Shown in pieces: positions 2,471-54,270 of a stretch of 64,000 nt of DNA. How positions within the stretch are numbered: the stretch's first letter is position 1; the number at the start of each line of letters is the position of its first letter. The position numbers and the translations under genes were made by a program. The notes beneath the pieces are model-generated. The model worked only from the letters and a program-made list of their open reading frames with translations, was not told the DNA's origin and did not search any database. This DNA is from an uncultured Coriobacteriia bacterium (GTDB lineage: Bacteria > Actinomycetota > Coriobacteriia > Anaerosomatales > PALSA-660), in contig CAIKZH010000156.1 of assembly GCA_903831865.1 (NCBI GenBank), positions 867-64,866 of the forward strand, written 5' to 3'.

Positions 2471-5422
2471 CTACGGAAGACCCCAAAGCGAGCGGAATCG
2501 GGAACCGATCTGAGCCTGTAGGGCCTGGCTCTTCTGCTCGAGGCGCTCCCGCTCCCGACCCACAGCCGATTGGAGACTCATGCAAACCGAGATGAGGACG
2601 CGAGTATCGGCGGTGATGCCATCGTGGGCCTTCACGCTCTCAGCATCGCCGAAGTCAACCTTCGGAACGGGAAGATCCGCCACGACAGCACTCCCCCGGC
2701 TGAAATAGCCACCTCGGAACGGACTCCCTCTCTTGCGAAGAAAGAACTCGGCGGTGGGTTGATTCAGCAGCGCCAGAATGAACTCAAGCGAGTAGCCTCC
2801 CCTCGGACTGGCGATAGCGACCTCACCCGCAGTTCCGCCAGAGGCAAAGCCGACCCCCTGCAAGTCAATCCCGTACTTGTCCCCAAGCTGGTTGACGGAG
2901 TAGATGATCTTGTTTGGTCGAAAGGCGGTCGCCAATGCCTGGTGACGACCATATCGATAGAACTCCCCCTCGGCGGGGGGCGGAGAAACGCTGCGCTGCT
3001 CGAGGCGTGTTCGATATGCCGATAGGTAGAGCCATGCCCCAGGAAACTCGGCCTGCAACCGCTCGGGGGGAATCGGGACCGCCTCGCCGTTGTCTCCGTA
3101 TTCATACGGGAAGATGACAAGGGCATCAGGTTCCACAGGCAAGTAGGAGTGGATACGAGCGGCCGAGTCCATCAGATAGGGTCTGACTAGCGCTTCCTCG
3201 ACATTCCAAGTCCGGCCATCCCGCTCGAACACGATTGAGCCGCCCAAGGATGTCCACTTCGATATCGGGAACACGTCCTCAGCGCTGGTCTGTATGCCGT
3301 TCACAACGTCCGCGATGTCGCCGAGTCTTTCCGAACCCGAGTGGAGAACCGATAGCATGAGCCGCTCCTCGGGTGTCGAAGGAAGCACCCAAGCCTTCCC
3401 GCCAAGGTCACGAATCAAGTCGTTGTCGAGCGCCATTCCCTTGTCGCTCGGACTCGCAAGCCAAGTCACGTAGTCATCAACCCGCCGGTAGCAGACCAAG
3501 GCCCGGGGCGTTTGGGAAAGGACCAAGCAGCAGACATAGGTCGATCGGTTGTGGAACAACAGCTCATTTCCGAAGTCGACTATTTCCGCAACTACGCCCT
3601 TGCGCGCCAGAAGTTGGCGGATCTTCATCCCTGACTCGATGGTCATCCACTTATTCGGCACAACCATTCCCAAAAGGCCCCCCTCCCTGAGCACGGAGAG
3701 TCCCTTCTCGATGAAGACGAAGTACTTGTCGAATTGTCGATAGGGTGTCGAGTAGGTCGACCTGTAGTAGTCGAACTCCCCCAGGCACCTCGTCTTCATC
3801 TCCTCCGTCTTCATGTACGGTGGGTTGCCCACGACGGCGTCGAAGTTCTCGGCCAGGCTCGTGGCCTGCCAGTCGAGCGGTCGAACGAGGTCCATGCTGG
3901 GCTCATCTTTGTAGTCCGGGCCGACAACCGAGTTACCCCAGACCACGTTGGTATCGAGGTTCGGAAGGATCTTTCGGCCTGGAGGGAGAGTCCCGTGTCT
4001 CTCATCCTCGAGGAGTTTCACCAGCAGACTGAACCTGGCCACCTCGACCGCCGTGTAGTCGATATCAACACCGTAGAGACATGCCTTCAGCAGTTCGCAC
4101 TTCACGGCGAAGCGGAGCCGATAGTCGTTCTCAGGCCGACGGTAGACTGCGACTGAGTCGCCCACACGCTTGAAATAGGCAATTGAAGCGTCAACAAGCT
4201 CGTCGAAAGCGCGAAGGAGGAATCGGCCCGAGCCGACGGCGATGTCTACGATGCGAAGTGCCTTGATGTCGTCATACGAGAGTCCCCCTTCGGGGATGAG
4301 CCCAGAGACTGCCCTCCGAACAATCTCATCCACCAGAGGCTGGGGTGTGGTGACAATCTCCCTGCCCTCGTAAGCAGGCTTGTCCTCCAGGACGATGGGC
4401 CCAGCTGGTCCGCCAGCAAGACGCTTGACCAAGAAGTACTCGTATACCTGGCCCAGGAAGTTCGCATCCAGCACGCTGAAGCTGTATGGCGCCCTAGGAA
4501 GGTAGAGCTCCTCAACGATCTCGAGGAATACGGAAGAGGCCAGCGCGTATTGAGTCTGGATCGGGTCGCGGCCGACATCGAAGAGCCCGGTATTGTATCG
4601 ATCGTCCATTCCCTCAAAGAACCGCCGGATTTCCACCAGATCCTGGCCCTCGGCCACCGAGCGAAGTCTTCCCTCCCCCTCGATTCCGCGATCTTCACAC
4701 ATCCGAACGAAGACCACTCGGTTGATAACCTTCTGGGCCAAGTCATTCACTTCGTCGGCGTGGAGATGTGCATATCTGGCCCATAGGTCCTCAGCAATCT
4801 TGAGGCGCCAGTCGTTCAGTCGATCCATGAACATCTTGTCAATGGGGATAGCATCTCCGGCAGCTGCGCCGAACTTGGTATCAAGAGAACCCTGGGCCAC
4901 AGCCTCCCTTCCGAAGAGCGCGAGAAGCTCATCGAACCTCGACACGAGGTCCTCGCAAGGTATCTCCATGAGCAGACCGACGTTCGCATCGTCGGTCACT
5001 TCTGGAGCGGCGTGAGTGTCGTAGACCCTGAAGTCTCGGAAGTTGGTCAATACCGAAACTGGCAGACCGCCGGTCCAACCGTAGCTACGGACCTGAAAGG
5101 CGCTCTCGCGACTTGTTCGGATGTCAACAGACGGCTTCTTCGCCTCGACGAAGAACCTGCGTACGGATTCAATCCGAAACGTGTAGTCAGGCCTCTTGGC
5201 TGACGTCTCAGTGGGCTGCGACTCCTCCCGGACGACGTCCTTGAGGCTGTTTGGTGCGCCGTGCCCGTTCTCCATGTCCCAGTCGAGGGCCTTGAACAAG
5301 GGATCAATGAACTCCACCCGGGCCTCAGTCTCCGTGTAGCCCAAAGCGGTCGAACAGTATCGATCCTGCTCCGCAAGAAACACCGCCACGCGATCTGCCA
5401 CCACTTGTTTCGCTGTCTCCAC
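2471..5422 (-). CDS. Type IIG restriction enzyme / N6-adenine DNA methyltransferase fusion (Eco57I-like)
   Basis: N-terminal PD-(D/E)xK-like motif (RPDY...VEAKK). SAM motif I (VDIAVGSGRF). Motif IV NPPY (VGNPPYM). Long C-terminal specificity region. Start placed at GTG 5422, which has a G-run upstream and lies 17 nt after the upstream stop. The ATG at 5521 would overlap the upstream gene by 83 nt. Confidence 0.85.
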   Translation of the reverse strand: METAKQVVADRVAVFLAEQDRYCSTALGYTETEARVEFIDPLFKALDWDMENGHGAPNSLKDVVREESQPTETSAKRPDYTFRIESVRRFFVEAKKPSVDIRTSRESAFQVRSYGWTGGLPVSVLTNFRDFRVYDTHAAPEVTDDANVGLLMEIPCEDLVSRFDELLALFGREAVAQGSLDTKFGAAAGDAIPIDKMFMDRLNDWRLKIAEDLWARYAHLHADEVNDLAQKVINRVVFVRMCEDRGIEGEGRLRSVAEGQDLVEIRRFFEGMDDRYNTGLFDVGRDPIQTQYALASSVFLEIVEELYLPRAPYSFSVLDANFLGQVYEYFLVKRLAGGPAGPIVLEDKPAYEGREIVTTPQPLVDEIVRRAVSGLIPEGGLSYDDIKALRIVDIAVGSGRFLLRAFDELVDASIAYFKRVGDSVAVYRRPENDYRLRFAVKCELLKACLYGVDIDYTAVEVARFSLLVKLLEDERHGTLPPGRKILPNLDTNVVWGNSVVGPDYKDEPSMDLVRPLDWQATSLAENFDAVVGNPPYMKTEEMKTRCLGEFDYYRSTYSTPYRQFDKYFVFIEKGLSVLREGGLLGMVVPNKWMTIESGMKIRQLLARKGVVAEIVDFGNELLFHNRSTYVCCLVLSQTPRALVCYRRVDDYVTWLASPSDKGMALDNDLIRDLGGKAWVLPSTPEERLMLSVLHSGSERLGDIADVVNGIQTSAEDVFPISKWTSLGGSIVFERDGRTWNVEEALVRPYLMDSAARIHSYLPVEPDALVIFPYEYGDNGEAVPIPPERLQAEFPGAWLYLSAYRTRLEQRSVSPPPAEGEFYRYGRHQALATAFRPNKIIYSVNQLGDKYGIDLQGVGFASGGTAGEVAIASPRGGYSLEFILALLNQPTAEFFLRKRGSPFRGGYFSRGSAVVADLPVPKVDFGDAESVKAHDGITADTRVLISVCMSLQSAVGRERERLEQKSQALQAQIGSRFRSLWGLP

Positions 5423-5438
5423 GTTCCCCCCGAGTGGC

Positions 5439-7109
5439 CTACTGCTCGACACCCGTCCGCAGTCTCCTGTGCCGCAATCGGCTCCACGCTTGGTGAATGA
5501 CTTCGCGTTCATGTTGTCCAAGACCTACCGCCCGCAGCACCACTTCGTCCTGCTCGACCAGTATTTGGTCCGCTTCCTCGTGTGAGCGTATCCGTCTGTC
5601 GAGATCCGCCAAGCGTCCGGCCCGCGGCTCCACGGCGGGGATGACAAGTCGCTCTATCTCAGACGGGACCAGTTCCAGGACCCCCCCACCGTAGTGCCTG
5701 CCTTCGAGCTCCGCCGTCAGTGCGGTCAGACTGTTCACGAATGAGTAGACGAGCGCCTCGAGAGACGGCGCTTCGGCCTTCGGCTTGATTCGATAGGCTG
5801 TGTCGGTCGTGTAGGCCCCCGCGGTGTTCAGGATGAGGCGGGGGAACACGCTTGACCGCTTCAGCATACCGATTGGCGTCGCATAGACAGACGGGACCGA
5901 GTACCACGGTTCTCGAATCCTGCACTTGTAGCGCTGCGGCAGCCCCTGCGCCTCACCGCGGGCAATGTACGCCTTCGGGCCCTCCGCAAGACTCTCGCTG
6001 GGTTGCGTCCCGAGGGCAACGAAGTTCGCCGGGAGCCCTCGTGCCCGATTAGCTTCGTGCATGGAATCGTCGTAGATGACTCCAGGGCAGTGTTCGCTCC
6101 GTCCGAACATCGGCGCAGTGAACTCCCCGAGGCCGTACTGGCTAACGACACTGTCGTTGACCAAGAAGAACGCATTCGCACCCGTGACGATTCCTACGTC
6201 GACGGTCGCAACATCCCTGAACGCACGCACTCCTGGAAGTTCGATGGCGCTGTCCAAGACCCGGAGTTCATCTGGCGACAAGAGAACCCTCATCCACTTT
6301 CCGCGCAGGACATCCCCGGACAGATACTGGGCATCTCTGAAGACTGGCACAGGGTCCCTGTCCAAGAACGCGTTGTCTGACATAGGGAGCACGCAGACGC
6401 CTTCGGATGCCTCGCCGTCGGTGCGCTTCTTTTCGAGAAGCAGGAGCACCGTCCCTTGTAGGGACTTGTCGAACAGCAGTTGTGCAGGGTCGATGACCAG
6501 AATCCTCTGGCATTGAGCAACTAAGAACTCGCGCAGCGACCCAGCGTGCAGGATATGGAGAATCTCGGCCGGGATGACCATTGCAAGCCGGCCACCGGCC
6601 TCGAGGAGTCCAACGCTGGCAATCACGAACGGCACCCAAGCGTTCGTGTGGCGGGTAAACCGAAGGCTCTGGCGAGCGAAGATCTGCTCCGAGAGCACTT
6701 GGTCTCTTGGTTCGAGGTACTGGTATCGGACATAGGGGGGATTGCCGAGAATGCCACCGAACGTTGCCCCGGCAGACATAGCGTCAAGACTCCACTCGAG
6801 GAAGTCGGCCGTCAGAACATCAGCATTCGCTGCCCAGCCATCGACTGCACGGCGTGACTTAGCCGCTTCCTCCGGCAGCCGCTCCACTCCCAGGAAGTCC
6901 ACATCCTGACGGCCCAGTTCGCGGACTGCCGTGATGAACGCCCCGTCTCCACAACTCGGCTCCAGCAGCGAGGAGGGCCGCGCGCTCAAGACCCACCGCG
7001 CTAGGAAGCGAGCTATCACGTGAGGCGTGTAGTAGCCGCCCCGCAGCTTGGTCGTCGATTCCTCTGCCTTGAATCTCGTGGCCGATCTCCCTGTCAGATG
7101 AGCGCACAC
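5439..7109 (-). CDS. Stand-alone N6-adenine DNA methyltransferase (gamma class, TaqI/Eco57I-M-like)
   Basis: 556 aa. Motif I EPSCGDGAF. Motif IV GNPPY. C-terminal target-recognition-type region. Sits immediately upstream of the Type IIG gene on the same strand. Confidence 0.85.
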   Translation of the reverse strand: MCAHLTGRSATRFKAEESTTKLRGGYYTPHVIARFLARWVLSARPSSLLEPSCGDGAFITAVRELGRQDVDFLGVERLPEEAAKSRRAVDGWAANADVLTADFLEWSLDAMSAGATFGGILGNPPYVRYQYLEPRDQVLSEQIFARQSLRFTRHTNAWVPFVIASVGLLEAGGRLAMVIPAEILHILHAGSLREFLVAQCQRILVIDPAQLLFDKSLQGTVLLLLEKKRTDGEASEGVCVLPMSDNAFLDRDPVPVFRDAQYLSGDVLRGKWMRVLLSPDELRVLDSAIELPGVRAFRDVATVDVGIVTGANAFFLVNDSVVSQYGLGEFTAPMFGRSEHCPGVIYDDSMHEANRARGLPANFVALGTQPSESLAEGPKAYIARGEAQGLPQRYKCRIREPWYSVPSVYATPIGMLKRSSVFPRLILNTAGAYTTDTAYRIKPKAEAPSLEALVYSFVNSLTALTAELEGRHYGGGVLELVPSEIERLVIPAVEPRAGRLADLDRRIRSHEEADQILVEQDEVVLRAVGLGQHEREVIHQAWSRLRHRRLRTGVEQ

Positions 7110-16192: not shown

Positions 16193-16418
16193 CTGGCAAC
16201 AGCGACGGCGGACAGCGGCAGGCCGCAAGACGACAAGGGGTTGTGCCTGATCATGACAACCGAAATCAACGTCCGCTCGCTGGACTTCAGTCTCCTGCCT
16301 TTGTCGGGATCTCGGGGACGCTTGCCTGTCTGCGACCACTCTCCGGCATCGATGTCAGACCCCCCTACTATGCTGACCTTGCGACACGGCTGTGTCGCAG
16401 AAGGGTCAGGCGAGGGAA

Positions 16419-17354
16419 ATGGACAGCACCATCACTGCACTGCTCCGAGGGATACGGCTCGGAGACCCGGTCGGGACGCACGGGCTCACGTTCGTGCCGG
16501 TCTTCTGCAAGGTCCCACCGGGACCGGACTACCTCACGTTGGCGGAAGCCGTGGAAGCGGACTCGCTGGTCGTGACGGAGATGGACGCGGGCGCCACTGT
16601 GCCCGCGCTTGAGGCACACAACGTGAGCGCGCGGCCCGTGCTGATCCTGGACGGCGAGGAGCTGTTGGGCGCCAAGCAGAACCGCGTCCTGAACACGACG
16701 GTGCTCATCGCTGCGGGCAGCAGCTACAAGTTGCCGGTGACGTGTGTGGAGCAGGGCCGCTGGAACATGGTGTCGGCGCGCTTCGCTGCGTCGGGACACC
16801 ACGCGACCCGCAACATCCGTGCGATCAACCACCGCGCCGTGGCCGAGAGCCTGCGCGCCGCGGGCGGCTACGAAGGAGCCCAGGGCAAGGTCTGGCAAGA
16901 GGTGAGGTCTCTTCACGCCAGGCACGGCGTCATCTCGCGGACCGAGGCGATGTACGACGCCTACGAGAGTCGCGCGGCCGAGGTCGGCGAGCTGATCGGC
17001 GGAATCACGCCACTGGAGGGTCAGAACGGCCTCCTCGCGCTGCTGGGCGGTGAGGTCCTCGGGCTCGACGTGGTCTCCAGACCGAGCGCCTACGCTCGAG
17101 TCCACGACAAGCTCGCGCGCAGCTACGCAGTGGACGTGACGGCCGCCAAGGCAGTCTCTCATACGCTCGATCTGGCCGCTGCGAAGCAGTTCGTCGCGTC
17201 GCTCAGCGAGATGGTCGGCACGGAGCACGACTCACCGGGGATGGGCCGCTCACACCGCTACACGTCGGAGTCCATCGTCGGCTCGGCGCTGACCTATCGC
17301 CGGGTGCCGGTGCACGCCGCGTTCTTCGCAGCGAAGCCGGGCGGCGATCGCTAG
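16419..17354 (+). CDS. DUF6569 / ARPP-1-like family protein
   Basis: ORF 16392..17354 trimmed to ATG 16419 (GAGGGAA upstream). LTFVPVF...YLTLAEAVEADSLVVTE...VPALEAHNVSARPVLILDGEELLGAKQNRVLNTTVLI...LPVTCVEQGRW matches my memory of that family. Confidence 0.55.
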   Translation: MDSTITALLRGIRLGDPVGTHGLTFVPVFCKVPPGPDYLTLAEAVEADSLVVTEMDAGATVPALEAHNVSARPVLILDGEELLGAKQNRVLNTTVLIAAGSSYKLPVTCVEQGRWNMVSARFAASGHHATRNIRAINHRAVAESLRAAGGYEGAQGKVWQEVRSLHARHGVISRTEAMYDAYESRAAEVGELIGGITPLEGQNGLLALLGGEVLGLDVVSRPSAYARVHDKLARSYAVDVTAAKAVSHTLDLAAAKQFVASLSEMVGTEHDSPGMGRSHRYTSESIVGSALTYRRVPVHAAFFAAKPGGDR

Positions 17355-20355: not shown

Positions 20356-20456
20356 CGGTCCGAAGTGAATCGCAGTCGACCTGCATGGCCACTGCCAGTG
20401 ACGACTTCGCGGCGGCTGGGGGGTGAAGACGCGTGGACGGCAAGTTCCGGGTCCCC

Positions 20457-20783
20457 ATGACGCTGATGCTGCTCGGCTCGATCTCCTGCATCGTCCTGAC
20501 AGTCGGGTTCGTCCTTGGGGGCGCGTTGGCCTCGATGCCCGCTGGGATCCTCGCCGTCATCTTCGCTGCGGCCGGGGGTCTCATCCTGGCGTCCGGTGTG
20601 AGTTGACTTCGCCTCTGCGGACCGGCCGTCGGCCAGGTCGTGCGGTTCGGTCTCCTCGTGCTCTTCGCTGTGATCGTCTTCTGGCGGATCGGCCCCGCCC
20701 CGGCGTCAGCGCTCGCCGTCGAGGCGCTCGTCGCCGGCATTCTGGCGATCGCCGCGTTTCGCACGCGGGAGGCATGTTCCTGA
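20457..20783 (+). CDS. Small multi-pass membrane protein interrupted by an in-frame TGA (or two separate 49/47-aa ORFs)
   Basis: ORFs 20457..20606 (MTLMLLGSISCIVLTVGFVLGG...) and 20640..20783 are hydrophobic, share a frame and have high G/C third positions. They fall below the 60-aa ORF-track cutoff. The RBS is weak. Confidence 0.3.
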
Positions 20784-23026: not shown

Positions 23027-23551
23027 TCAGACCCCTCGCTCGGGTGCGGGCGCGCCAGAGCCGCTGCTGCCCGCTTTGCCCCTGGTCTCGGATAGCCGCC
23101 GAATGGCAGCCGTCACGTCATCTGCGTGACCTTCGATCGCGACCGCGGGCCAGACCGCGGCCACCTTCCCGGCCGGGTCGATCAGGAACGTGCTCCGCTT
23201 GGCGACGATCCCGAGAACCCCGCGCGCGCCGTAGTCTTCGATGACCTTCTTCGCCGTGTCGGGGACCATCGGGAAGGTCAGAGAGAATGCGTCGATGAAC
23301 GACTGCTGCCTCTCGGCCGGATCTGCGCTCACGCCCACCACGAGGGCGTTCAGCGACTCCAGTTCGGCCACGTGGGCCTGGAAGTCCGCTGCCTCGTGAC
23401 ATCAACCGGGTGTATTGGCCCGAACGTAGAAGAACACGACCACCCACTTGCCGCGCTGCTTTGAGAGGACGAATCGACCGCCTCCGGTCGTGTCAGCGTC
23501 GATCTCAGGTGCCGGGGCCCCGACGCTCGGCATCGGTGGGTGCGTTGGCAT
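23027..23551 (-). CDS. Bcp-type peroxiredoxin with in-frame TGA at the peroxidatic Cys position (candidate selenoprotein)
   Basis: ORFs 23402..23584 and 23027..23371 share a frame and are separated only by TGA 23402-23404. Joined they read VVVFFYVRANTPG-[TGA]-CHEAADF...LNALVVGVSAD...RSTFLIDPAGKV, colinear with Bcp (FYPK..TPGCT.QAC...VLGVS.D). Start set at ATG 23551 (GAGGAGAC upstream). Confidence 0.6.
23351..23391 (-). promoter_or_regulatory. SECIS-like hairpin 10 nt downstream of the in-frame UGA
   Basis: CAGC-G-GACT(T)CCAG-GCC-[CACGU]-GGC-(CGAA)-CUGGAGUC-GCUG gives about 15 bp with bulges. The apical loop starts 27 nt after the UGA. Confidence 0.4.
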
Positions 23552-23587
23552 GACGGTCTCCTCGGTGTGGGGGCGGATCGACACGGA

Positions 23588-24361
23588 TTATGCCCGCGGG
23601 GGCTGCGCATCAGTGGACGCCGGCGCGCTCCTGCCGGCCGTCGACCCGGGCGCCGACCTCCCGAACACGACACAGAGAAGCGCGCCGACGACTGAGAGCG
23701 TCAGCCACACGATGGAGATGACCGTGACCTCGAACCGGTACTCGAGGTTCAGGCCGAAGAACGCGGACATGCCGACGAACAAGACGATGACGAGCGCCGA
23801 GGAGACGAAGAGCACCCAGCGGGTGGCGCGCTCAAGACGCGACGAACCGAGCGCCAGTGCCAGGAACAGGAAGGCGACCCCCGCCACGAGGAAGCCGAGC
23901 TCCTCAAGTGCGATGAACACGCCGTGCGGGTTGTACTGCGACAGGATCGCCAGACCGTCGACCTCACCCCTGACCAGAGCGGGCTGCACCGTGCGCAGCT
24001 GGATGAAGTAGTCGGTCGCGATGACGACGAAGGAAGCCGTCGCCAGACTCGATCCGATGGTGCCGAAGAGCCGCTCTCCCGCCTCCCGGCGCTCCCGAAC
24101 GCAGGCCGCCAGCACAACGAACGACAGCATCATCAGAAGTGCCGGATACATCCAGAGGAAGTCGCCGGGGACGAAGCGCGCTGCCGCCGAGTAGGGATAG
24201 GCGATCGCCACGCCCGGGGCCACGAACGGTCCGGTCCGGGGTGGCGTCGCGGCGGCGACTGCGAACGACACCGCGGCAAGGGCGGCGGTTGCGGCGGCAG
24301 ACCACGCGCCGACGCGGCGCACGACGGTCTCGTGGGACATCTCACTCGTCTGATCGCTCAT
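23588..24361 (-). CDS. Integral membrane protein (hypothetical)
   Basis: 257 aa with about six hydrophobic helices. Same strand as the peroxiredoxin and immediately upstream of it. Confidence 0.65.
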   Translation of the reverse strand: MSDQTSEMSHETVVRRVGAWSAAATAALAAVSFAVAAATPPRTGPFVAPGVAIAYPYSAAARFVPGDFLWMYPALLMMLSFVVLAACVRERREAGERLFGTIGSSLATASFVVIATDYFIQLRTVQPALVRGEVDGLAILSQYNPHGVFIALEELGFLVAGVAFLFLALALGSSRLERATRWVLFVSSALVIVLFVGMSAFFGLNLEYRFEVTVISIVWLTLSVVGALLCVVFGRSAPGSTAGRSAPASTDAQPPRA

Positions 24362-29835: not shown

Positions 29836-31014
29836 TCAGTGCCCGGTGTCGACCAGCTTGTGTATCCTGCCGTGCGCCCAGTCGGCGACCCAGAGCCCGC
29901 CGTCCTTGTCCACGCCGAAGGTGCTGATGGTGTACGACGTCTTGATCAACAGCTTCCTCACCCACACGCCGCCGGAGTGCTTGAGGCCCCAGATCTTGCC
30001 GGCGGCATAGTCGCCGAAGTAGTAGATGCCCTGCATGCGCGGATAGGCGGAGCCGCGGTAGACGTAGCCGCCCATGACCGCCTCACCTTCCGAGTGCGAG
30101 TACTCGGCCACAGGCCACACGAAGCCTCGTGCCTTTGACTTCGCCTTGAGCAGGTGCGAGCCCTCGTAGAGTGGCCAGCCGAAGTCCCATCCTCCGCGCG
30201 AGCCCGCCGGAACCCTGTCGATCTCTTCCCATCGGTGCTCTCCCACGTCGCCGATCCAGAGGTCGCCCTGGGCGGGATCGAATGAGAACCGCCACGGGTT
30301 GCGCAGGCCGTACGCCCAGATCTCGGGACGCACGCCCTTCTTGCCGACGAAGGGGTTCGTGGGCGGAATACTGTAGCCCGGGACAGCGGGCGAGGACTCG
30401 ACGCTCAGGCGCACGATCTTGCCCAGCAGGACGCCAAGGTTCTGCGCTCGGTTGCCTGGGTCATCGACCTTCCCTCCGTCGCCAAGGCCCACATACAGGT
30501 AGCCGTCGGGGCCGAAGGCCAGCTGGCCCGCGTAGTGATCCGAGTAGGGATGGGCGACCTCGAGGACAAGCTGCCTCGTCGTCCAGTCGAGACGGTCGGG
30601 ATCGGTTGCTGAGAAGCGGACTCTGTAGACCACCGAGCGGTTGCCGGTGTTGACGAAGTAGATGTAGACGTAGTGCTTGGTCGCGAAACCCGGGGGGAAG
30701 ACGAGCCCGAGAAGTCCTTGCTCGTGTCCGGACGACAGCACGTAGGTGTGTATGTCGAGCACCGGAGTCGCCACAAGAGATCCGTTCTGCACCAGCCGTA
30801 TGACGCCGGACTGCTCCGTCACAAAGAGACGGTCCGTCCCATCGCCGGGAGAGACGATGTTCGTCGGCCGAGGCAACCCCCCGAACGATGTGCTCGCGGC
30901 CAGCGTGGGCCAGACGGGCGCGGCGCTTGCCGGCGACGTGGGGACGACCAGTACTGTGAGTGCGAACGCGAGAGCGAGTGCGATCCGGGCGCGGTATCTC
31001 GATGAACCAGTCAC
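29836..31014 (-). CDS. PQQ-dependent sugar (glucose/sorbosone) dehydrogenase-like beta-propeller, secreted
   Basis: FGPDGYLYVGLGDGG, NPWRFSFD and LLGLVFPP blocks. Signal peptide. Start set at GTG 31014 (GGGAAGGGG upstream). ATG 31056 is an alternative. Confidence 0.8.
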   Translation of the reverse strand: MTGSSRYRARIALALAFALTVLVVPTSPASAAPVWPTLAASTSFGGLPRPTNIVSPGDGTDRLFVTEQSGVIRLVQNGSLVATPVLDIHTYVLSSGHEQGLLGLVFPPGFATKHYVYIYFVNTGNRSVVYRVRFSATDPDRLDWTTRQLVLEVAHPYSDHYAGQLAFGPDGYLYVGLGDGGKVDDPGNRAQNLGVLLGKIVRLSVESSPAVPGYSIPPTNPFVGKKGVRPEIWAYGLRNPWRFSFDPAQGDLWIGDVGEHRWEEIDRVPAGSRGGWDFGWPLYEGSHLLKAKSKARGFVWPVAEYSHSEGEAVMGGYVYRGSAYPRMQGIYYFGDYAAGKIWGLKHSGGVWVRKLLIKTSYTISTFGVDKDGGLWVADWAHGRIHKLVDTGH

Positions 31015-31162
31015 GCTGGCCCCTTCCCTCGGGCGTGGTCTGCTCTGTCCTGCCAAGAGGATTCCCGAAGCGGGGCGAGGCAGACACGATCGTGTAGGAC
31101 CGCCACGGCGCCCAGCTCGTGTTCCCGGCGCGCGGGAGTGCTCTGCCCGGGCCGGTCAGGCG

Positions 31163-34070: not shown

Positions 34071-35207
34071 CTACTCGCTTCGCGTGCCGACACTGACTCG
34101 ATTACGGCCTGCCGCCTTGGCGGCATACATCGCCCGATCAGCCGCGGCGATCAGCGCGTCTCCGGTCCGACCATCGCGGGGGAACGTCGCGACACCGAAC
34201 GAGGCGGTCACGGCGATGCTCGAAAGCCCGTGGGCGATGGGAGCGGCGGCCATCGTGCTGCGCAGTTCCTCGGCGCGCTCGACGGCTTGCTGCTCAGCCA
34301 TGCCCGGCATGACCAGCAGAAACTCCTCGCCCCCGTAGCGGCAGTAGATGTCGCTCCCGCGCGCATGCCGTCTCATCAGGTCGCCGAATACCCGGAGCAC
34401 CTCGTCGCCGGTCAGATGTCCAAAGCGGTCGTTGACCGCTTTGAAGTGGTCGAGGTCCCCCATGATCACACTCACGGGATACCCTTCGCGTTCTGCCAGG
34501 ATCAGCTCGCGCACGAGTGTTTCCTCGAGGTAGCGGCGATTGTAGAGGCCGGTCAGCGCATCATGTATGGACTCTTCGCGGAGCCTCTCTTGCAGAGCAT
34601 GCATCTCGCGCTCCGTGCGGGTTCGATCGGTCACATCCATCACGAGGCTGATCAGCGCGCGCCGGCCGCCGATCTCCATGGTGTTGCCATGAACCTCCAC
34701 ATCGATGACATCACCGTTCTTTCGCAGGCCATGAAACGTGTACTCGACTCGCGCCGCTTCGCCGCTCAGACGCTTCCGAGCGTTCTCGGCCACCAGGGGC
34801 CTGTCGCTCTCGATCGCGGTGTCCATCGGACCCAGCTCGATGATCTCCGCAGCGCTGTAGCCGAAGATCTCGTTGAACTTGAGGTTGGTGTAGGTGAACT
34901 TCCCTTCGCCCACTATGGCGATCCCGACCAGAGACTGACTCACCACGCCGTGGAATTGCTCTTCGGACTCACGAAGAGCGCGGGTGATCTTCTCGTTGTC
35001 ACGGAGCGCGGCCTCCAGCTCCGCGGTGCGTCCGCGCACCTGTTCCTCAAGCATCACCGAACTCTGGAACAAGCTGAAGTCGGACCCCTTCGCATTCGTG
35101 CTGCGCTCGGCGCGGTTCATGAGCGCCTGCACGACCTTGTTCAGCCTCGCGATCTCGGCCGACAAGTCTGCGCAACCGCCTGCTTCAGGCAGGGCGATCT
35201 CAGGCAT
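34071..35207 (-). CDS. Coiled-coil + PAS + GGDEF diguanylate cyclase
   Basis: ORF 34071..35360 trimmed to ATG 35207, which overlaps the upstream stop (ATGCCTGA). PAS block followed by DALTGLYNRR...RYGGEEFLLVMP. Confidence 0.85.
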   Translation of the reverse strand: MPEIALPEAGGCADLSAEIARLNKVVQALMNRAERSTNAKGSDFSLFQSSVMLEEQVRGRTAELEAALRDNEKITRALRESEEQFHGVVSQSLVGIAIVGEGKFTYTNLKFNEIFGYSAAEIIELGPMDTAIESDRPLVAENARKRLSGEAARVEYTFHGLRKNGDVIDVEVHGNTMEIGGRRALISLVMDVTDRTRTEREMHALQERLREESIHDALTGLYNRRYLEETLVRELILAEREGYPVSVIMGDLDHFKAVNDRFGHLTGDEVLRVFGDLMRRHARGSDIYCRYGGEEFLLVMPGMAEQQAVERAEELRSTMAAAPIAHGLSSIAVTASFGVATFPRDGRTGDALIAAADRAMYAAKAAGRNRVSVGTRSE

Positions 35208-36372
35208 GCGTGGCCTCCGTGGCAGGGCGGCCGATGGCGATACCGGTGAACGTCTGATTGACATGGACGCCGCCGAACTGCTCTCCGTAGGTGTCGAACC
35301 CGGTGACGTTGTTGTCACGGAACAGCGCCGCGACGTCGCCCCCGAGCCCCTGCTGCTCAATCTCGAGCTTGCGAAGGATGCAGTCGCATCCGATGACCAG
35401 CTGCGGCAGACCTATCGCGGCACGGATCTCGGTGAACGCATGGTCGAGGTTCTTGACCAGGTCCAGCCCGCGCGCCACCCGCAAGACCAGGCCCTCTTCA
35501 ATGGCGCAGAAGAACGTCAGGCTCCCGTCGGGGTCTGACTTCTGAATCGAGCGAACGTAGTTCTCGCCATCGATCAACACCACCACCGGCGATCCCGCGA
35601 AACTGGTGGGATCCAAGTCCTGAACCTGCGAGCCGACCAGCCGGGCATACGCTTCGGCCGCGGGGTAGCCGTCAAGCTCCATGACACGGCGATGCTGGGC
35701 ATCGGCAGCGGTAACGACCACCCGCTGTTCGGTGGGAACGAAGTGCTGGGTCTTGAAGACCCGAAAGGGCACTTCCGTGGTGACAAGCGTCAAGACGGCG
35801 CTGTCGTCGTGGAAGCAGCCATCGCAATACACCAAGGTCCTTCCGAAATCCAGCCCATCGCCTGCGGAGCCGCCGACCAGGGGGAAGCTGCCCAGAGCGC
35901 CTTGCAGGACACGTGTGACGGGCTCCTCGCGCACCGACAGACCGTCGATCAGCAGGAGCGCGAATGTGTTGTCGGGCTTGCTCCCCGGTCTCGAGCTTTC
36001 CAGCTCCTGCAGCAGGCCCTGCACGAGCGACTGGCCCGAAGCGTCCTCGAACTGCTGCAGGTGATCGATCACCCCGCATGCCGCACCGAAACTGCCTGCG
36101 GGAAAGCTTGCTCCCGAGATGCTGTGCTCGTTGCAGCCACCTGGTCCGATTTCACCGGCCGTCGTGCAACCAACGACGCGCACACCGGCGAACTCGCGAC
36201 CCATCTCGTCGGCGAGCACGTCCAGGTCGTACTGACTGGAGCAGAAGAAGACGACCAGCGCCATCTCCGGCTGAGCCACCGCAGCGCGAAACTCGCGCAC
36301 GGCTTGCCTCGGGTCCATCGCACAAGACTGTCCTCGGCGTATGTTGGTCTCTGCGTCCATTTCGTGCCCCAT
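35200..36372 (-). CDS. FIST-domain signal-transduction protein (FIST_N + FIST_C)
   Basis: ORF 35200..36510 trimmed to ATG 36372 (alternative 36360). LVVFFCSSQYD...VVGCTTAGEI...GGSAGD...VTGFDTYGE pattern. Confidence 0.75.
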   Translation of the reverse strand: MGHEMDAETNIRRGQSCAMDPRQAVREFRAAVAQPEMALVVFFCSSQYDLDVLADEMGREFAGVRVVGCTTAGEIGPGGCNEHSISGASFPAGSFGAACGVIDHLQQFEDASGQSLVQGLLQELESSRPGSKPDNTFALLLIDGLSVREEPVTRVLQGALGSFPLVGGSAGDGLDFGRTLVYCDGCFHDDSAVLTLVTTEVPFRVFKTQHFVPTEQRVVVTAADAQHRRVMELDGYPAAEAYARLVGSQVQDLDPTSFAGSPVVVLIDGENYVRSIQKSDPDGSLTFFCAIEEGLVLRVARGLDLVKNLDHAFTEIRAAIGLPQLVIGCDCILRKLEIEQQGLGGDVAALFRDNNVTGFDTYGEQFGGVHVNQTFTGIAIGRPATEATHA

Positions 36373-36409
36373 TCTCGGAGTCCGGCCGGGCGGCCGGGTA
36401 CCCTCGCGG

Positions 36410-39151
36410 CTAGGCAGGCGCGTCGAGGCTGGCAGCGCCGGGGGCCGACAGCAGGCCTCCCGCGCCTGGCTTCGCCGGCAGTGTCGCGCGCGCTGGAGCG
36501 GACCCGCCATTCGCAGCGTCCGGTTGCAGGACGGAGCGCTCCGTGTACTCCCCCAGCGGGAGCGGCCGCCCCACTTCGTAGCCCTGCGCGAAGTCGGCTC
36601 CGAGGCCCTCTATCGTGTCCAGGAGGCCGGGGTTCTCGACCCACTCGGCCACGGTGCGGATGTCCAGTCCCCTGCACATCTCGATGATGGCCCGCACAAA
36701 GTGCATGTCCGGCGAGTCCTCGTTCAGCCCCTTCACGAGAGCGCCATCGATCTTGAGGAAGTCGATCGGAAGGTGCTTGAGGTAGTAGAAGGACGACGCG
36801 CCGGAGCCGAAATCGTCGAGCGAGAAGCGGCAGCCGATCTCCTTGAGGGCGCCTATGAACTTCTGCGCCCGGGCCATGTCGGCGATCGCCGTGGTCTCCG
36901 TGATCTCGATCACGAGTCTGGAGGGCGAGACACGACGGTTGCGCAGCTCCTCGCGGATGATGTCGAGCAGCTCGGGGTCAGAGAACGCCGCACCGGACAC
37001 GTTGATGGCGAAGACCGTGTCACGCCCGGCGGCCCGCTCCTCGCCCAGCATCCGGATCCCACGCCGGGCGACCCATCGGTCGATGTCGCGTATGGCCCCG
37101 AGTCGCTCGGCAGTGGGGATGAACTCGGCCGGCAGGATGATCTCGCCGTTCTCCGCGATCATGCGGAGCAGCAGTTCATACACGGGAACGGCATTGTCAG
37201 CCAGACGCCGCAGGGGCTGCGCATAGAGCTCGAACCGGTCAGCGCGCAGAGCGCGCCTTATCTCCTCGGCCGTCTCTATCTGCTCGGTCATCCGGCTGCG
37301 CCACAGGTCGTCCTTGGTGTACGCGAAGAAGCGGTCGCCCCCCGTCGTCTTGGCCTCGTACATCGCGAGGTCGGCGCAGGCCATCAGCTCATCGCACGTG
37401 GTCCCGTGGTCAGGGAATCGTGCGATGCCGATGCTGGCGCTCACGCTCACCACATGTCCGGCGGCCGCGAATGACGCTTCGGAGAGCATCTCGAGCAACC
37501 TGGACGCGGTCGCCTCAGCCTGCTCCTCGTCAGCGTGCGGCACGAGCATCCCGAACTCGTCTCCGCCCACCCGAGCCACGGTGCAGTAGTCGCGCGAGTT
37601 CGCCTTGATCATCCGGGAGAAGGCGACCAGGAGATCATCTCCTGCCGCGTGGCCCAGCGAATCGTTCACGTTCTTGAAGTTGTCGAGGTCGAACCACAGC
37701 AGCGCCCCGCTTCCACCCAGGCGCTCCACCTCAGACAGCTCTCTCTCGAGCTCCGCTTCGAACTGCCTGCGGTTCGCCAGGCCCGTGAGGGGGTCATGGG
37801 CCGCGAGATAGCTGAGCTGACTGTGCGAACGGTCAAGCTCCAACTGGATCGACAACACCTGCGCGAGCCCATCGGCCAGCGCGACCGACGTCCTGTCGAG
37901 CTTGCGCGGCGAGGTGAAGTAGAACTCGAGTGTGCCGACGGCCCGTCCTCCGACCCTCAGGGGAACGATCACCCCGGCGTTCGAGGAGCACTGCGGGTTG
38001 GAGCAACCGATCTCGCCTCGGCTGCGCAGGACCTCGCGAGCGTCGTTCCTGATGGCGTCGCGCGTCGCGGTCATGCGTATCGGGCTGCCGGCGGGGTGGC
38101 GGTCGATGCCGACGCCAGCGATGCCTACGACCTGCGTCGTGTCGCACAGCACCACGGTATCGGCGGCGCTGTGTTCCAGGATGAGCCGACAGACATCCTC
38201 CGCGGCTCCTGGATTGAGGCCGTCGCGCAGGCGGTCCATCGAGGCACTGGCCGTATCCAGGATCATTTGCGACTGAAGGGCGCGCAGATGGTCGGGAAGC
38301 ACCATGGTGTCGAGCGTCAGCCCCAGACCGACGACGAGGACGAGCCCGAAGATCCCCAGCGCCGTGCCCCCGCTGAGCACAGCCGTACGGGTCAACGTGA
38401 ACGCCGTGCGAGGCTGCGTGACCCCGGCAACAAGGGCCGGCCGGCCGTCCAGCCCGTGCACGGTCGCGTAGGCGGTCAGCGTGTGTGGAGCCAGCGCAGT
38501 GCCCAGGCGACGGTCCCCTTGGCCAGCAGGCCGCAGGGCCAGCGGCAACTGCGTGAGCTTGCTGATGGCCGCAACACGACTTCGTGACAGAAGGTAGCCG
38601 GTCACCAACAGCCCGTCGTAGGGCGCGGAGCCACTGCTGGAGGAGATGGGCTGAACTGCGAGAAGCAGCGAGCCTGCCGGGAGGTGCAGGGCACCGGAGG
38701 CCGCGACGTTCGGGTCTGTCAGGTGCAGCTTCGGAAGGTGCGACGCCAGGTAGGAACCGAGTCCGGCCGGCAGAGGAACACCGCGGCCCGAGACCGGGTC
38801 GACCGCCTTGGAGAACACGATCCTGCCGCTCTTGTCGGCGAAGACCATGAAGTCGACGTCGAGCACGGCCAGGCTGGCATCAGTGAGGTTGTTGCGCACG
38901 TACGCCTGGTTCCGATCCTGCATGAACCGGTACGTGTCGTCCCAAAGTGCCCAGTCGCCTGTGACGAGCGTGAGCTGCTCGGCGCCGTGGTTGATTTGAG
39001 ACGCGACGCGACTCGCGTCCGCCGCGACGTCGCGCTCGTCGATCTGGTTGGAGACCCGGTCCCCCAGCAGGATGCCGCCAGTCTGCAGCGCCGCCCATAG
39101 CACAACGGCGGTCGTCAGCAGTAGCAGAAACGTCCTTGTCCGAACTCCCAC
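36410..39151 (-). CDS. Membrane sensor CHASE4 + LytS-type GAF + GGDEF + EAL protein
   Basis: 913 aa. N-terminal TM helix. CHASE4-like DWALWDDTYRFMQD. GAF-like ...GTLEFYF. GGDEF (VARVGGDEFGML). EAL domain (YELLLRM...EITE...DDFG). Confidence 0.85.
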   Translation of the reverse strand: MGVRTRTFLLLLTTAVVLWAALQTGGILLGDRVSNQIDERDVAADASRVASQINHGAEQLTLVTGDWALWDDTYRFMQDRNQAYVRNNLTDASLAVLDVDFMVFADKSGRIVFSKAVDPVSGRGVPLPAGLGSYLASHLPKLHLTDPNVAASGALHLPAGSLLLAVQPISSSSGSAPYDGLLVTGYLLSRSRVAAISKLTQLPLALRPAGQGDRRLGTALAPHTLTAYATVHGLDGRPALVAGVTQPRTAFTLTRTAVLSGGTALGIFGLVLVVGLGLTLDTMVLPDHLRALQSQMILDTASASMDRLRDGLNPGAAEDVCRLILEHSAADTVVLCDTTQVVGIAGVGIDRHPAGSPIRMTATRDAIRNDAREVLRSRGEIGCSNPQCSSNAGVIVPLRVGGRAVGTLEFYFTSPRKLDRTSVALADGLAQVLSIQLELDRSHSQLSYLAAHDPLTGLANRRQFEAELERELSEVERLGGSGALLWFDLDNFKNVNDSLGHAAGDDLLVAFSRMIKANSRDYCTVARVGGDEFGMLVPHADEEQAEATASRLLEMLSEASFAAAGHVVSVSASIGIARFPDHGTTCDELMACADLAMYEAKTTGGDRFFAYTKDDLWRSRMTEQIETAEEIRRALRADRFELYAQPLRRLADNAVPVYELLLRMIAENGEIILPAEFIPTAERLGAIRDIDRWVARRGIRMLGEERAAGRDTVFAINVSGAAFSDPELLDIIREELRNRRVSPSRLVIEITETTAIADMARAQKFIGALKEIGCRFSLDDFGSGASSFYYLKHLPIDFLKIDGALVKGLNEDSPDMHFVRAIIEMCRGLDIRTVAEWVENPGLLDTIEGLGADFAQGYEVGRPLPLGEYTERSVLQPDAANGGSAPARATLPAKPGAGGLLSAPGAASLDAPA

Positions 39152-51403: not shown

Positions 51404-53362
51404 TTGAGGATATGGGCCTGGGCGGCCGCACTACTGCTCACCACTGCGCTCGCAGTGTGGGGGATGCTCGCCGGCGTCACGTCCGTGGCGCTGGTCGCCG
51501 TCTTCGTTCTGCTGGGTCTGGCCGTGGTCCCGATCCTGGGGCTGCGGTTCGACAGGGCGGCCGCCGAGGTCGCGATACCCGACAAGACCCGCGCACAGCA
51601 GTCGAAGTCGATCCTGGACATCGCCCGGGAGTCGATGAGCTGGATCGGCTCCGGGCTCACCCCGGAGTCGGCCGCCGCCGTGTGCGCCCTCATCCAGCGT
51701 GACACCGGCGCTGCCGCGGTGGCGATCACGGACCGCGAGAAGGTGCTGGGGTTCCAGGGTGTGGCCGCCGACCATCACAAGGTGGGCGGTCCCATCGTCA
51801 CCCAGGCCACCAGGGACGCCATCGCCCGCAACGAGCGCCGGATCATGGTGGATCGCGACGAGATCGGCTGTCCCGACCCCAAGTGCCCTCTTCGCGCGGC
51901 CATCGTCGTCCCGCTCACCGCGGGTGATCAGGCGATCGGCACCCTGAAGTTCTACTACACCGACCCGAAGGATCTGCACGAGACGGCGATCGTGCTGGCC
52001 GAGGGCCTCGCGCACCTGTTCTCGACGCAGCTCGAACTCGACAGCTCGAGAAGAGAGCTCTCGTTCCTGGCGGAACACGACCCGTTGACCGGGCTCAGCA
52101 ACCGCCGAAGGTTCGAGACGGAACTCTCGAAGGAGCTCTCGGAACAGCGAAGGCTCGGCGGCGCCGGTGCGGTGCTCTGGTTCGACCTGGACAACTTCAA
52201 GGACATCAACGACAGCCTGGGGCATGCGGCCGGCGACCAGCTGCTCGCCACCATCGCCGAGGTCCTGCGCGAGACCAGCCGCAGCTACGACGTCGTCGCG
52301 CGGCTGGGGGGCGACGAGTTCGGCGTGCTCATCCCGCACGCGGACCGCGCCGAGGCCACCCAGGCCGCCGCGCGCCTTCGGCGCGAGCTTGCCTCCCACG
52401 CGTTCCACGTCGTGGGCCAAGAGGTGCACGTCACCGCGAGCATGGGGATGGTGTGCTACCCCGAGCACGGGCAGTGCCGCGAGGATCTGCTGGCCCGTGC
52501 CGACCTCGCGATGTACGAGGCCAAGGGCAAGGGCGGCGACGAGCTCATCATCTACGAGCCCGGCGAAGCCGGACACGACCAGATGTCGAAGAACGCCGAG
52601 TGGGCGAGCGCGATCTCCTCGGCGCTACGCGACGATCGCTTCTGCCTGGACGCGCAGCCGATCCGCAGCCTCGTCGGAGGCACGGACGTCGCGTACGAGA
52701 TGCTCCTGCGGATGGTGGGGGAAGACGGGCAGCTGGTGGACGGCGACGAGTTCCTCCCCGTCGCCGAGAGGACTGGGCTCATCGGAGGCATCGACCGCTG
52801 GGTGGCGCGAAGAGCCATACAGCTTCTGGCCGAGGAGAAGGCGCAGGCACGGGACACCGTGCTCGCCATCAACGTCTCTCAGCACGCGTTCGCCGACCAC
52901 GCTCTGCTCGACATCATGCGTGTAGAGTTCGCTTCCACCGCGGTGGCCCCGAGCAGGCTCATCGTCGAGATCTCAGAGTCGGCGGTCGTGGCGGACATCA
53001 CGGGAGCGGCGGAGTTCGTCCGCTCCCTCCGCGAGCTGGGTTGCCGGTTCGCGCTGGACCATGTCGGCTCCGGCAGTTCGCTCTTCTTCTACCTCGAGCA
53101 CCTTGGAGCCGACTTCCTCAAGTTCGACAGCGACCTGATCAAGGGCCTGGAACGCGACGGTGGTCCCACCGACGCGGCGTTGATCCGGGCCCTGGTGGGG
53201 ATGTGCAAAGCCATGCGGATCCCCACGGTCGCTGAGTCGGTCGGGAACGCGAACCTCCTGCATGTGGTCGCCGCCCAGGGCGTCGACTACGTGCAGGGCG
53301 AAGAGGTCGGGCCGGCGGCGTCGCTCGGCAGCCAGGCCGCAAGCGGACCGATCGTTGCCTGA
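51404..53362 (+). CDS. Membrane LytS-type GAF + GGDEF + EAL protein (paralog of the C-terminal two-thirds of 36410..39151)
   Basis: Two N-terminal TM helices. GAF-like ...IGTLKFYY. GGDEF (VARLGGDEFGVL). EAL (YEMLLRM...EISE...DHVG). TTG start at 51404 is uncertain. Confidence 0.85.
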   Translation: MRIWAWAAALLLTTALAVWGMLAGVTSVALVAVFVLLGLAVVPILGLRFDRAAAEVAIPDKTRAQQSKSILDIARESMSWIGSGLTPESAAAVCALIQRDTGAAAVAITDREKVLGFQGVAADHHKVGGPIVTQATRDAIARNERRIMVDRDEIGCPDPKCPLRAAIVVPLTAGDQAIGTLKFYYTDPKDLHETAIVLAEGLAHLFSTQLELDSSRRELSFLAEHDPLTGLSNRRRFETELSKELSEQRRLGGAGAVLWFDLDNFKDINDSLGHAAGDQLLATIAEVLRETSRSYDVVARLGGDEFGVLIPHADRAEATQAAARLRRELASHAFHVVGQEVHVTASMGMVCYPEHGQCREDLLARADLAMYEAKGKGGDELIIYEPGEAGHDQMSKNAEWASAISSALRDDRFCLDAQPIRSLVGGTDVAYEMLLRMVGEDGQLVDGDEFLPVAERTGLIGGIDRWVARRAIQLLAEEKAQARDTVLAINVSQHAFADHALLDIMRVEFASTAVAPSRLIVEISESAVVADITGAAEFVRSLRELGCRFALDHVGSGSSLFFYLEHLGADFLKFDSDLIKGLERDGGPTDAALIRALVGMCKAMRIPTVAESVGNANLLHVVAAQGVDYVQGEEVGPAASLGSQAASGPIVA

Positions 53363-53399
53363 CCCCGTCACCTCGCCCTCAAGGCGGAAGGAGCCACAC

Positions 53400-54245
53400 A
53401 TGGCCTACCCACTGGCAGCATGGAGACCGGCGATCGATGTCCGGCAGTCGCGCAGGACCTACACCCGCGCGCCGCTCACGCAGGAACAGACCGCCAAGCT
53501 GCGCAGACTGTGCAAGGACTTCAGGCCGTTCGACGATGCCCGCGTTGAACTGATCGAGGATGCCGGCGACCTGTTCACCAGCGATGACGTCGGCTACGGC
53601 CGCATCTCAGGGGCGCGCACGGCTCTCGTCTTCATCGGCCGGGTCAAGTCCCCGCAGTCCGATCTCCACGTGGGCTATCTGGGCGAGGCCGCGGTGCTTG
53701 AAGCGACGCGGCTGGGTCTGGGGACGTGCTGGACGCATCGGATGTACAGCGCGAGCACCGTCGCGAGTCACGTCGCCCTCGACTACGGTGAGCGTGTCGT
53801 CGCAGCCAGCCCCGTGGGGTTCGTGCCGTCCGCGCCCAGCATCGGCGAGCGGCTCCAGACGCTGAGCCCGGCGGCCACCGAGCGGCTCCCCGTTGCCGGG
53901 ATCGCGGAGTCGCAGTGTCTGACGCACTCCCGCGGGATGTACCGCGAGCCGCTGGAAGCGGTCCGCCGGGCTCCCTCACCGCTCAACCGGCAGGTCTGGC
54001 GGTTCACCGTCGAGGACGGCTGTCTGTGCCTCACGCTCGCGGCGGGCCAGGAAGTGACCCGCTGCCCGAAGCGGATCGACGCGGGCATCGCGATGCTGCA
54101 CGTGGACGTCGCCATGGCGGCCACCGGCCACGAGGGGAAGTGGGAGACCTGCGGCAGCGCGCCAGTGGCCCGCTGGCGCCCGAGACTCGCAGTCGTGGAC
54201 GACATCGCCGAAGAGAACGACAGGCGACACCCGATCTACACGTGA
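53400..54245 (+). CDS. Nitroreductase-like family protein
   Basis: ORF 53262..54245 trimmed to ATG 53400 (GGAAGGAG upstream). ...IDVRQSRRTY... N-terminus and GLGTCW block. Confidence 0.65.
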   Translation: MAYPLAAWRPAIDVRQSRRTYTRAPLTQEQTAKLRRLCKDFRPFDDARVELIEDAGDLFTSDDVGYGRISGARTALVFIGRVKSPQSDLHVGYLGEAAVLEATRLGLGTCWTHRMYSASTVASHVALDYGERVVAASPVGFVPSAPSIGERLQTLSPAATERLPVAGIAESQCLTHSRGMYREPLEAVRRAPSPLNRQVWRFTVEDGCLCLTLAAGQEVTRCPKRIDAGIAMLHVDVAMAATGHEGKWETCGSAPVARWRPRLAVVDDIAEENDRRHPIYT

Positions 54246-54270
54246 GGACGCGCGACTCCTCATCCGAGGG

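Follow-up and report, generated by a model that had tools for sequence, protein, structure and literature searches.

Peroxiredoxins (Prx) with a TxxU motif, in which U is selenocysteine (Sec), are an established bacterial selenoprotein family (PF00578). In 2006 the family comprised 12 members, for which five Cys-to-Sec conversions were inferred, and by 2016 it had reached 91 proteins from 78 organisms (PMC13188914, PMC1794560, PMC5029168). Its prototype is PrxU from Eubacterium acidaminophilum, for which the work of Sohling et al. 2001 is listed in PMC13188914 and PMC1794560. The members are found in anaerobic bacteria and contain an AhpC/TSA domain, where Sec takes the place of the peroxidatic Cys in a PxxxTxxU motif. 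Repeated conversion of Cys to Sec is thought to be their origin. The use of Sec for Cys in the peroxiredoxins of some anaerobes, on which the original prediction for the present locus drew, is thus well documented in the literature.

The same domain, motif and anaerobic setting can be recognized for a gene in a 64,000-nt stretch of DNA (the window) from an uncultured Coriobacteriia bacterium, where an in-frame TGA occupies the place of the peroxidatic Cys. The probability that this is a genuine Sec-peroxiredoxin gene, with the UGA decoded as Sec, is put at about 0.9. Sec decoding is proposed because the UGA stands at the position of the catalytic Cys, is followed by a hairpin under selection and occurs in a taxon of known Sec capacity. 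As in the described family, a PF00578 domain, a TPG-UGA with Cys homologues and a (putative) SECIS-type hairpin are present, and the gene is predicted to form a new clade within this already known kind of Sec-peroxiredoxin. A Sec-peroxiredoxin in an anaerobe is in itself unsurprising and the known principles of Sec decoding are unchanged. What is noteworthy is the size of the unannotated clade, together with its U-C variant.

The window protein can be distinguished from PrxU (43 bits, where the curated model requires 270) and falls in the PrxQ/BCP subfamily instead. Its best whole-domain matches are the Cys-type PrxQ/BCP proteins (Xanthomonas campestris BCP, 3GKK/5IOX; models NF053650 and NF006960), with which it shares the ...YFYP.x.TPG-C/U-T.E... 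motif and a conserved Arg. In these proteins, however, the catalytic residue is Cys rather than Sec and the His at position +2 is not invariant. The thiol peroxidase Prx-SUH (NF045827) likewise combines a thioredoxin fold with Sec in a redox motif and a His shortly after it, but the similarity is marginal (20 bits versus 298) and the motif context is another. The Prx-like UxxC thiol:disulfide oxidoreductases and the VPGUxxT family are also thioredoxin-fold Sec proteins. Their motif context differs from that of the window protein, and the VPGU model is absent among the NCBIfam matches listed for it.

Reading frame, family and active site

The minus strand between 23584 and 23027 translates as ...KWVVVFFYVRANTPG-TGA-CHEAADFQAHVAELESLNALVVGVSAD..., and another excerpt of this reading is ...GKWVVVFFYVRANTPG-TGA-CHEAADFQAHVAELESLNALVVGVSAD.... 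A single TGA thus splits two ORFs in the same frame, as the original prediction had it, and no further stop or frameshift is present. The motif around the TGA reads NTPG-U-CHEA. The start is likely the ATG at 23551 rather than the GTG at 23584, since the ATG is preceded by a Shine-Dalgarno-like element and the homologues start with MP.VG. The features are collected in Table 1.

Table 1. Features of the proposed Sec-peroxiredoxin locus in the window
Feature	Coordinates	Strand	Remarks
Sec-Prx coding sequence	23551..23027	minus	174 codons plus TGA stop (23029..23027); PrxQ/BCP-type, proposed Sec is codon 50
Proposed Sec codon (in-frame UGA)	23404..23402	minus	replaces the peroxidatic Cys of the T-P-G-C motif
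Cys codon (TGT)	23401..23399	minus	directly 3' of the Sec codon; vicinal U-C pair
Shine-Dalgarno-like GAGGAG	23563..23558	minus	6 nt 5' of the ATG (23551..23549); read from the sequence
SECIS-like hairpin	23391..23351	minus	lower stem 23391..23378 with 23362..23351; apical region 23377..23363; within the coding sequence
Upstream co-directional gene	23588..24361	minus	257-aa predicted membrane protein; no Pfam match

When the TGA is read through, the protein matches positions 1-123 of the 124 in the Pfam AhpC-TSA profile (PF00578; E 8e-32, 110 bits) and scores 64 bits against Pfam Redoxin. The NCBIfam ranking is headed by PrxQ (110 bits), followed by BCP (69 bits) and AhpC (47 bits), and the first seven PDB matches are all BCP. 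Both the Pfam alignment and the alignment with the PrxQ/BCP structures 5iox and 3gkk (E 2.5e-22) pair the TGA with the TPGC Cys, so that the earlier assignment of the codon to the catalytic Cys holds. From these comparisons the protein is assigned to the PrxQ/BCP subfamily rather than to AhpC/Prx1, Prx6 or Tpx. It stays below the equivalog cutoffs of both PrxQ and BCP (110 versus 260 and 69 versus 140 bits, respectively) and therefore points to a divergent PrxQ/BCP clade.

The catalytic Thr of PxxxT is kept (T47 of NTPGU). The Arg at position 119 (in AKRSTFLID) is invariant in the family alignment, and its counterpart in 5iox is the Arg of 'ERSTFLL'. Across the Sec family the His at position +2 after Sec is invariant as well (U-[T/C]-H); in PrxQ proteins of the Cys type this place is taken by K, T, Q, A or V. 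In the Sec clade this His may contribute to the chemistry of the Sec.

A resolving Cys for the atypical 2-Cys mechanism is absent from the Sec family at Cp+5, where K or A is found, and the resolving-Cys position of Xanthomonas (the Cys of 'NFCAKQ') aligns with Ile. Moreover, 34 of the 69 predicted proteins lack Cys altogether, and among the forms with Thr after Sec almost none has a Cys within the domain. By its residues the Sec family thus resembles the 1-Cys PrxQ variants. Recycling of the 1-Cys type is expected because both resolving positions are occupied by other residues and most domains hold no other Cys.

Conservation of the TGA codon

When each GTDB species was scanned through one genome, 76 loci were recovered: 68 family loci that cover the site, one family locus (L066) that is cut off before it and seven Cys-type homologues, which are more distant and belong to other lineages. 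All 68 covering loci carry TGA at this codon, in the context NTP[G/A]-U-[T/C]-H-[E/A], and the seven Cys-type homologues have TGC or TGT. The alignment with Cys-containing orthologues, which had been suggested as a check, thus agrees with an exchange of Cys for Sec. The hosts are nearly all uncultured Coriobacteriia or other Actinomycetota, among them an Anaerosomatales MAG and Coriobacteriaceae bacterium EMTCatB1, and the gene also occurs in complete or near-complete genomes (e.g. OY968780.1 with locus L017, BDLO01000001.1 of EMTCatB1 with locus L010, and DDXA01000004.1).

Only one base separates TGA from TGC or TGT, and a sequencing or assembly error that hides a true Cys codon could be considered. 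The chance of this is negligible. An identical sequence is found in two independent JGI samples (L077, L078), and the TGA recurs in 68 independent assemblies from different platforms, which settles the possibility of a misread TGC that had been raised with the original prediction.

It could also be supposed that a nonsense mutation has killed an ordinary Cys-peroxiredoxin, as the ORF is split by a single in-frame stop and gene callers annotate nothing but fragments. Such a pseudogene is very improbable: genomes of only 57-85% identity would have to share the same stop at the same codon, purifying selection is seen on both sides of it without further lesions, and a selected hairpin lies 3' of it. 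Over the 21 codons on the 5' side of the TGA, the pairwise differences at the three codon positions are 0.14/0.15/0.43; over the 40 codons on its 3' side they are 0.17/0.15/0.35, and extra stops are absent. Substitution is of the coding type on both sides, so the two halves evolve as one protein-coding frame, and purifying selection acts on both. This bears out the strong coding character and the lack of other lesions that had been noted for the window gene. Given the conservation of the TGA and the identical sequence in the two JGI samples, decay of the gene and assembly error are both taken as excluded for practical purposes, and the claim of a candidate selenoprotein instead of a pseudogene is upheld by the conserved TGA, the selection on both halves and the selected hairpin. 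In two long-read MFD assemblies (L063, L070) the TGA is conserved and the frame is lost further downstream, probably through assembly indels rather than decay.

The annotation of the family reflects the TGA. In a search of 5.8 billion proteins, the relatives at 60-100% identity are almost all C-terminal pieces of 95-115 aa, because gene callers stop at the conserved TGA. The NCBI relatives P0061 and P0066, for instance, are annotated as a "peroxiredoxin" or "redoxin domain-containing protein" of 98-101 aa. For the window, the gene callers predict exactly the C-terminal ORF of 114 aa (GTG at 23371), and it could be argued that only this truncated redoxin-like protein is made. This is hardly probable. 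The internal starts vary among the homologues (V or M, at different residues) and none is conserved. Neither the catalytic motif nor the opening beta strands of the fold are included in the fragment, and the 49 N-terminal codons, too, are conserved under purifying selection. One continuous Sec-containing protein is preferred to the two-ORF reading.

Three relatives from JGI (P0001-P0003) are full-length and have W at the Sec site. The DNA of P0001 reads ggt TGA tgt cac at this site, so that its W stems from reading a short contig with code 4. In these JGI calls on short contigs (P0001-P0003; L079, 1064-1582), Trp is given for the Sec codon, apparently by use of code 4. The W at the catalytic site is an annotation artefact, which could mislead surveys of the genetic code. 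If the present reading is right, a "broken" gene is a working selenoprotein, and a whole environmental clade of Coriobacteriia has been annotated as fragments of 95-115 aa or with Trp. This would have consequences for selenoproteome counts, for the prediction of genetic codes from short contigs and for functional inference in anaerobic subsurface Actinomycetota.

The downstream hairpin

The geometry of the hairpin in the present family fits that of bacterial SECIS elements, with the base about 11 nt from the UGA, a bulged U and a G as first nucleotide of the loop. In the window, the hairpin base lies 10-11 nt 3' of the UGA, and the minimum free energy fold pairs 14 bp and places the apical loop 27 nt past the UGA. 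The existence of the hairpin, its spacing and its loop position were thus correctly predicted. In the window alone, the single hairpin gives a z of -0.54 against dinucleotide shuffles, which is not significant. A weak signal of this kind is expected at a GC content of 66%. The hairpin is accepted as real from the family comparison and not from its stability in a single sequence.

For this comparison, 66 family sequences were aligned, which is possible without gaps from the UGA onward. Columns 15-27 and 43-54 form the stem, with 85% of the cells paired; when the pairing is slid by 1-3 columns, this drops to 23-49%. Compensatory changes are found at columns 18-51 (G-C in 46 sequences, C-G in 15) and at columns 15-54 (C-G in 30, G-C in 14). 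At 18-51, a non-synonymous change (K to N, or K to another residue) is coupled to a synonymous one (UCC to UCG). When folded one by one, all 66 sequences yield a single hairpin of ~14 bp (mean -19.4 kcal/mol), whose apical loop starts 24-30 nt past the UGA.

The stability was further compared with a null in which synonymous codons are resampled and the protein is kept. The family mean of this synonymous-shuffle z is -2.14, with 89% of the sequences below -1 and the window at -1.69. Three other segments of the same genes, serving as controls, gave -0.47, -0.04 and +0.28, and the Cys-type homologues range from -0.6 to +1.9. Taken together, the hairpin is conserved with covariation and selected beyond the coding constraint. 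The geometry compatible with a SECIS, which had been claimed for the window hairpin, recurs in the family with the loop distance of 24-30 nt.

Two pairing registers of the stem coexist. Which of the two Glu codons, GAG or GAA, is used follows the register, and the register depends on whether Ser or Ala is encoded next (Fisher p 6e-7, without correction for phylogeny). Where the commoner register is adopted, a U bulges out of the stem 4 bp beneath the apical loop. In 50 of the 66 sequences the loop begins with G. RNAalifold, run on the 66-sequence alignment, did not recover the stem and returned only a trivial 5-bp structure, because the two registers coexist; explicit pair counting and per-sequence folding were used in its place. 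A search of the whole window with Rfam at the gathering threshold gave no matching family, and at E ≤ 10 the region 23300-23450 gave one chance-level match only (c4-a1b1, 9 bits).

The SECIS of E. coli fdhF is similar in that the hairpin follows directly after the UGA within the coding sequence, with its base about 11 nt away, and in the bulged U and the G that begins the loop. The family hairpins differ from it by a longer stem (11-14 bp), by an apical region of up to 15 nt that often holds extra pairs and by a loop further from the UGA (24-30 nt), and there is no sequence similarity between the two.

Proposed Sec decoding, the U-C forms and the neighbourhood

Reassignment of UGA to Trp (code 4) or general read-through in the lineage would also turn the split gene into one protein. 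W is given at the site in the three JGI relatives, and a clade with this reassignment was described in the same class in 2026, within the Eggerthellaceae (PMC13462651). The genomes of that clade are, however, small, have 31-40% GC and lack RF2 and tRNA-Sec, and selB is missing from all but 1 of its 34 genomes (PMC13462651). The window has 66% GC. TGA terminates 21 of its 49 called genes, and the TGA-ended genes show full-length domain matches. TGA is thus an ordinary stop in the window, which makes the code-4 reading unlikely. A scan for TGA-split ORFs with coding bias over ~1.2 Mb found mostly gene ends or antisense frames; within the 64 kb it left one other plausible case, with a filter that missed even most of the Prx genes. 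Furthermore, catalysis would be lost with Trp in the peroxidatic position, and a reassigned codon needs no conserved local hairpin. Overall, a Trp codon or general read-through is considered a very slim prospect, and decoding of the UGA as Sec is preferred.

In the same class, most Eggerthellaceae possess tRNA-Sec and selB (PMC13462651). According to ARAGORN, neither the 64 kb of the window nor any of 60 loci contains a tRNA-Sec. Likewise, tblastn with E. coli SelA, SelB and SelD as queries detected no selA, selB or selD, either in the window or within 10 kb of the 68 family loci (~1.1 Mb). The sole match was a selD that adjoins the Cys-type homologue of a spirochaete (L069), from which it follows that the selD query works. 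Pfam annotation of 40 window genes revealed neither Sec machinery nor another selenoprotein, and the literature on EMTCatB1 and Anaerosomatales mentions neither selenoproteins nor this peroxiredoxin. In the two cultured Anaerosomatales, Anaerosoma tenue and Parvivirga hydrogeniphila, the catalytic subunit of formate dehydrogenase is given as two adjacent accessions (MCK8114746-7 and MCL4079382-3; PMC9686372). These split accessions could represent an fdhA divided by a Sec TGA, which, if true, would be evidence of Sec use in Anaerosomatales.

The proposed mechanism would proceed as follows. During translation, the UGA would be recoded as Sec, with the hairpin acting as bacterial SECIS element from within the coding sequence. 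The product would then have Sec where P-x-x-x-T-x-x-C has its peroxidatic Cys, along with the motif Thr and the conserved Arg. As both of these residues are retained, the Sec is expected to attack the peroxide, presumably generating a selenenic-acid intermediate. In most members, this intermediate would be reduced directly by an external thiol or thioredoxin (1-Cys-type mechanism). The dependence on SelB, the insertion of Sec, the peroxidase chemistry and the reductant are those that we infer from the sequence comparisons.

In the sub-clade of the window, the last step may be different. The residue after Sec is Thr in 59 of the 69 family members and Cys in 10, the window included. The U-C forms comprise a clade of nine and one independent case (L031), and the step from Thr (ACN) to Cys (TGY) requires two nucleotide changes. 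It is possible that the two neighbors form a vicinal selenenylsulfide; in a speculative scheme, the Cys beside Sec would thereby act as the resolving residue. We know of no prior description of peroxiredoxin recycling by a vicinal selenenylsulfide (U-C dyad). A vicinal redox pair is present in mammalian thioredoxin reductase, as the Cys-Sec of its GCUG motif. The likeness lies in the adjacent Sec and Cys, which could (putatively here) form an eight-membered selenenylsulfide ring. In the reductase, however, the order is C-U and the pair sits in a flexible C-terminal tail, whereas in the present proteins it is U-C, and the pair begins a helix inside the peroxiredoxin.

From these observations it may tentatively be proposed, as a rather speculative hypothesis, that the proteins constitute an unrecognised 1-Sec PrxQ clade of at least 68 species-level lineages, in which U-C evolved at least twice as a built-in resolving pair. 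The hosts are uncultured anaerobic Coriobacteriia (OPB41/Anaerosomatales-like and relatives). The natural U-T and U-C active sites offer a comparison of how Sec-peroxiredoxins are recycled without the canonical resolving Cys.

Upstream of the Sec-Prx, a gap of 36 nt separates the end of the co-directional membrane protein gene from the Prx start. The gap contains no terminator-like site, and the two genes may be co-transcribed. The immediate neighbors, including this gene, are not conserved beside the Prx in other genomes. Relatives of a GSDH-like gene (glucose/sorbosone dehydrogenase, PF07995) occur in 26 related loci and lie within 1-2 kb of the Sec-Prx in a number of them (L049, L054, L058, L059, L067 and others). 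In the window the GSDH-like gene (29836-31056) is ~6 kb away from the Sec-Prx. A loose functional or positional association of the two may exist.

Another TGA lies between two small ORFs, 59 and 58 codons long, which share a frame of the plus strand and have hydrophobic products (~20427-20780; TGA at 20604, context ...GGLILASGVS-TGA-LRLCGPAVGQVV...). JGI calls two genes for their counterpart (L077, 3816-4166), and two neighbouring small membrane proteins, one gene that has been split, or read-through could account for the pair. Elsewhere, a lower-GC island on the minus strand (2471-7109; 57-60% versus 66% overall) contains two large genes: a 1016-aa Eco57I/MmeI-like fused restriction-methylase (Eco57I, N6_Mtase and HSDR_N domains) and a 556-aa M.Eco57I-like methyltransferase. 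Together the two genes give the impression of a type IIG restriction-modification system that was acquired horizontally. An ARPP-1 domain protein is encoded at 16392-17354 and a Schlafen-like helicase at the end of the window (62052-63998). Finally, the regions 34071-39151 and 51404-56148 are unusually rich in cyclic-di-GMP signalling genes, with the architectures GGDEF-PAS, FIST, CHASE4-GAF-GGDEF-EAL, GAF-GGDEF-EAL and PAS-HD-GYP-like HD_5.
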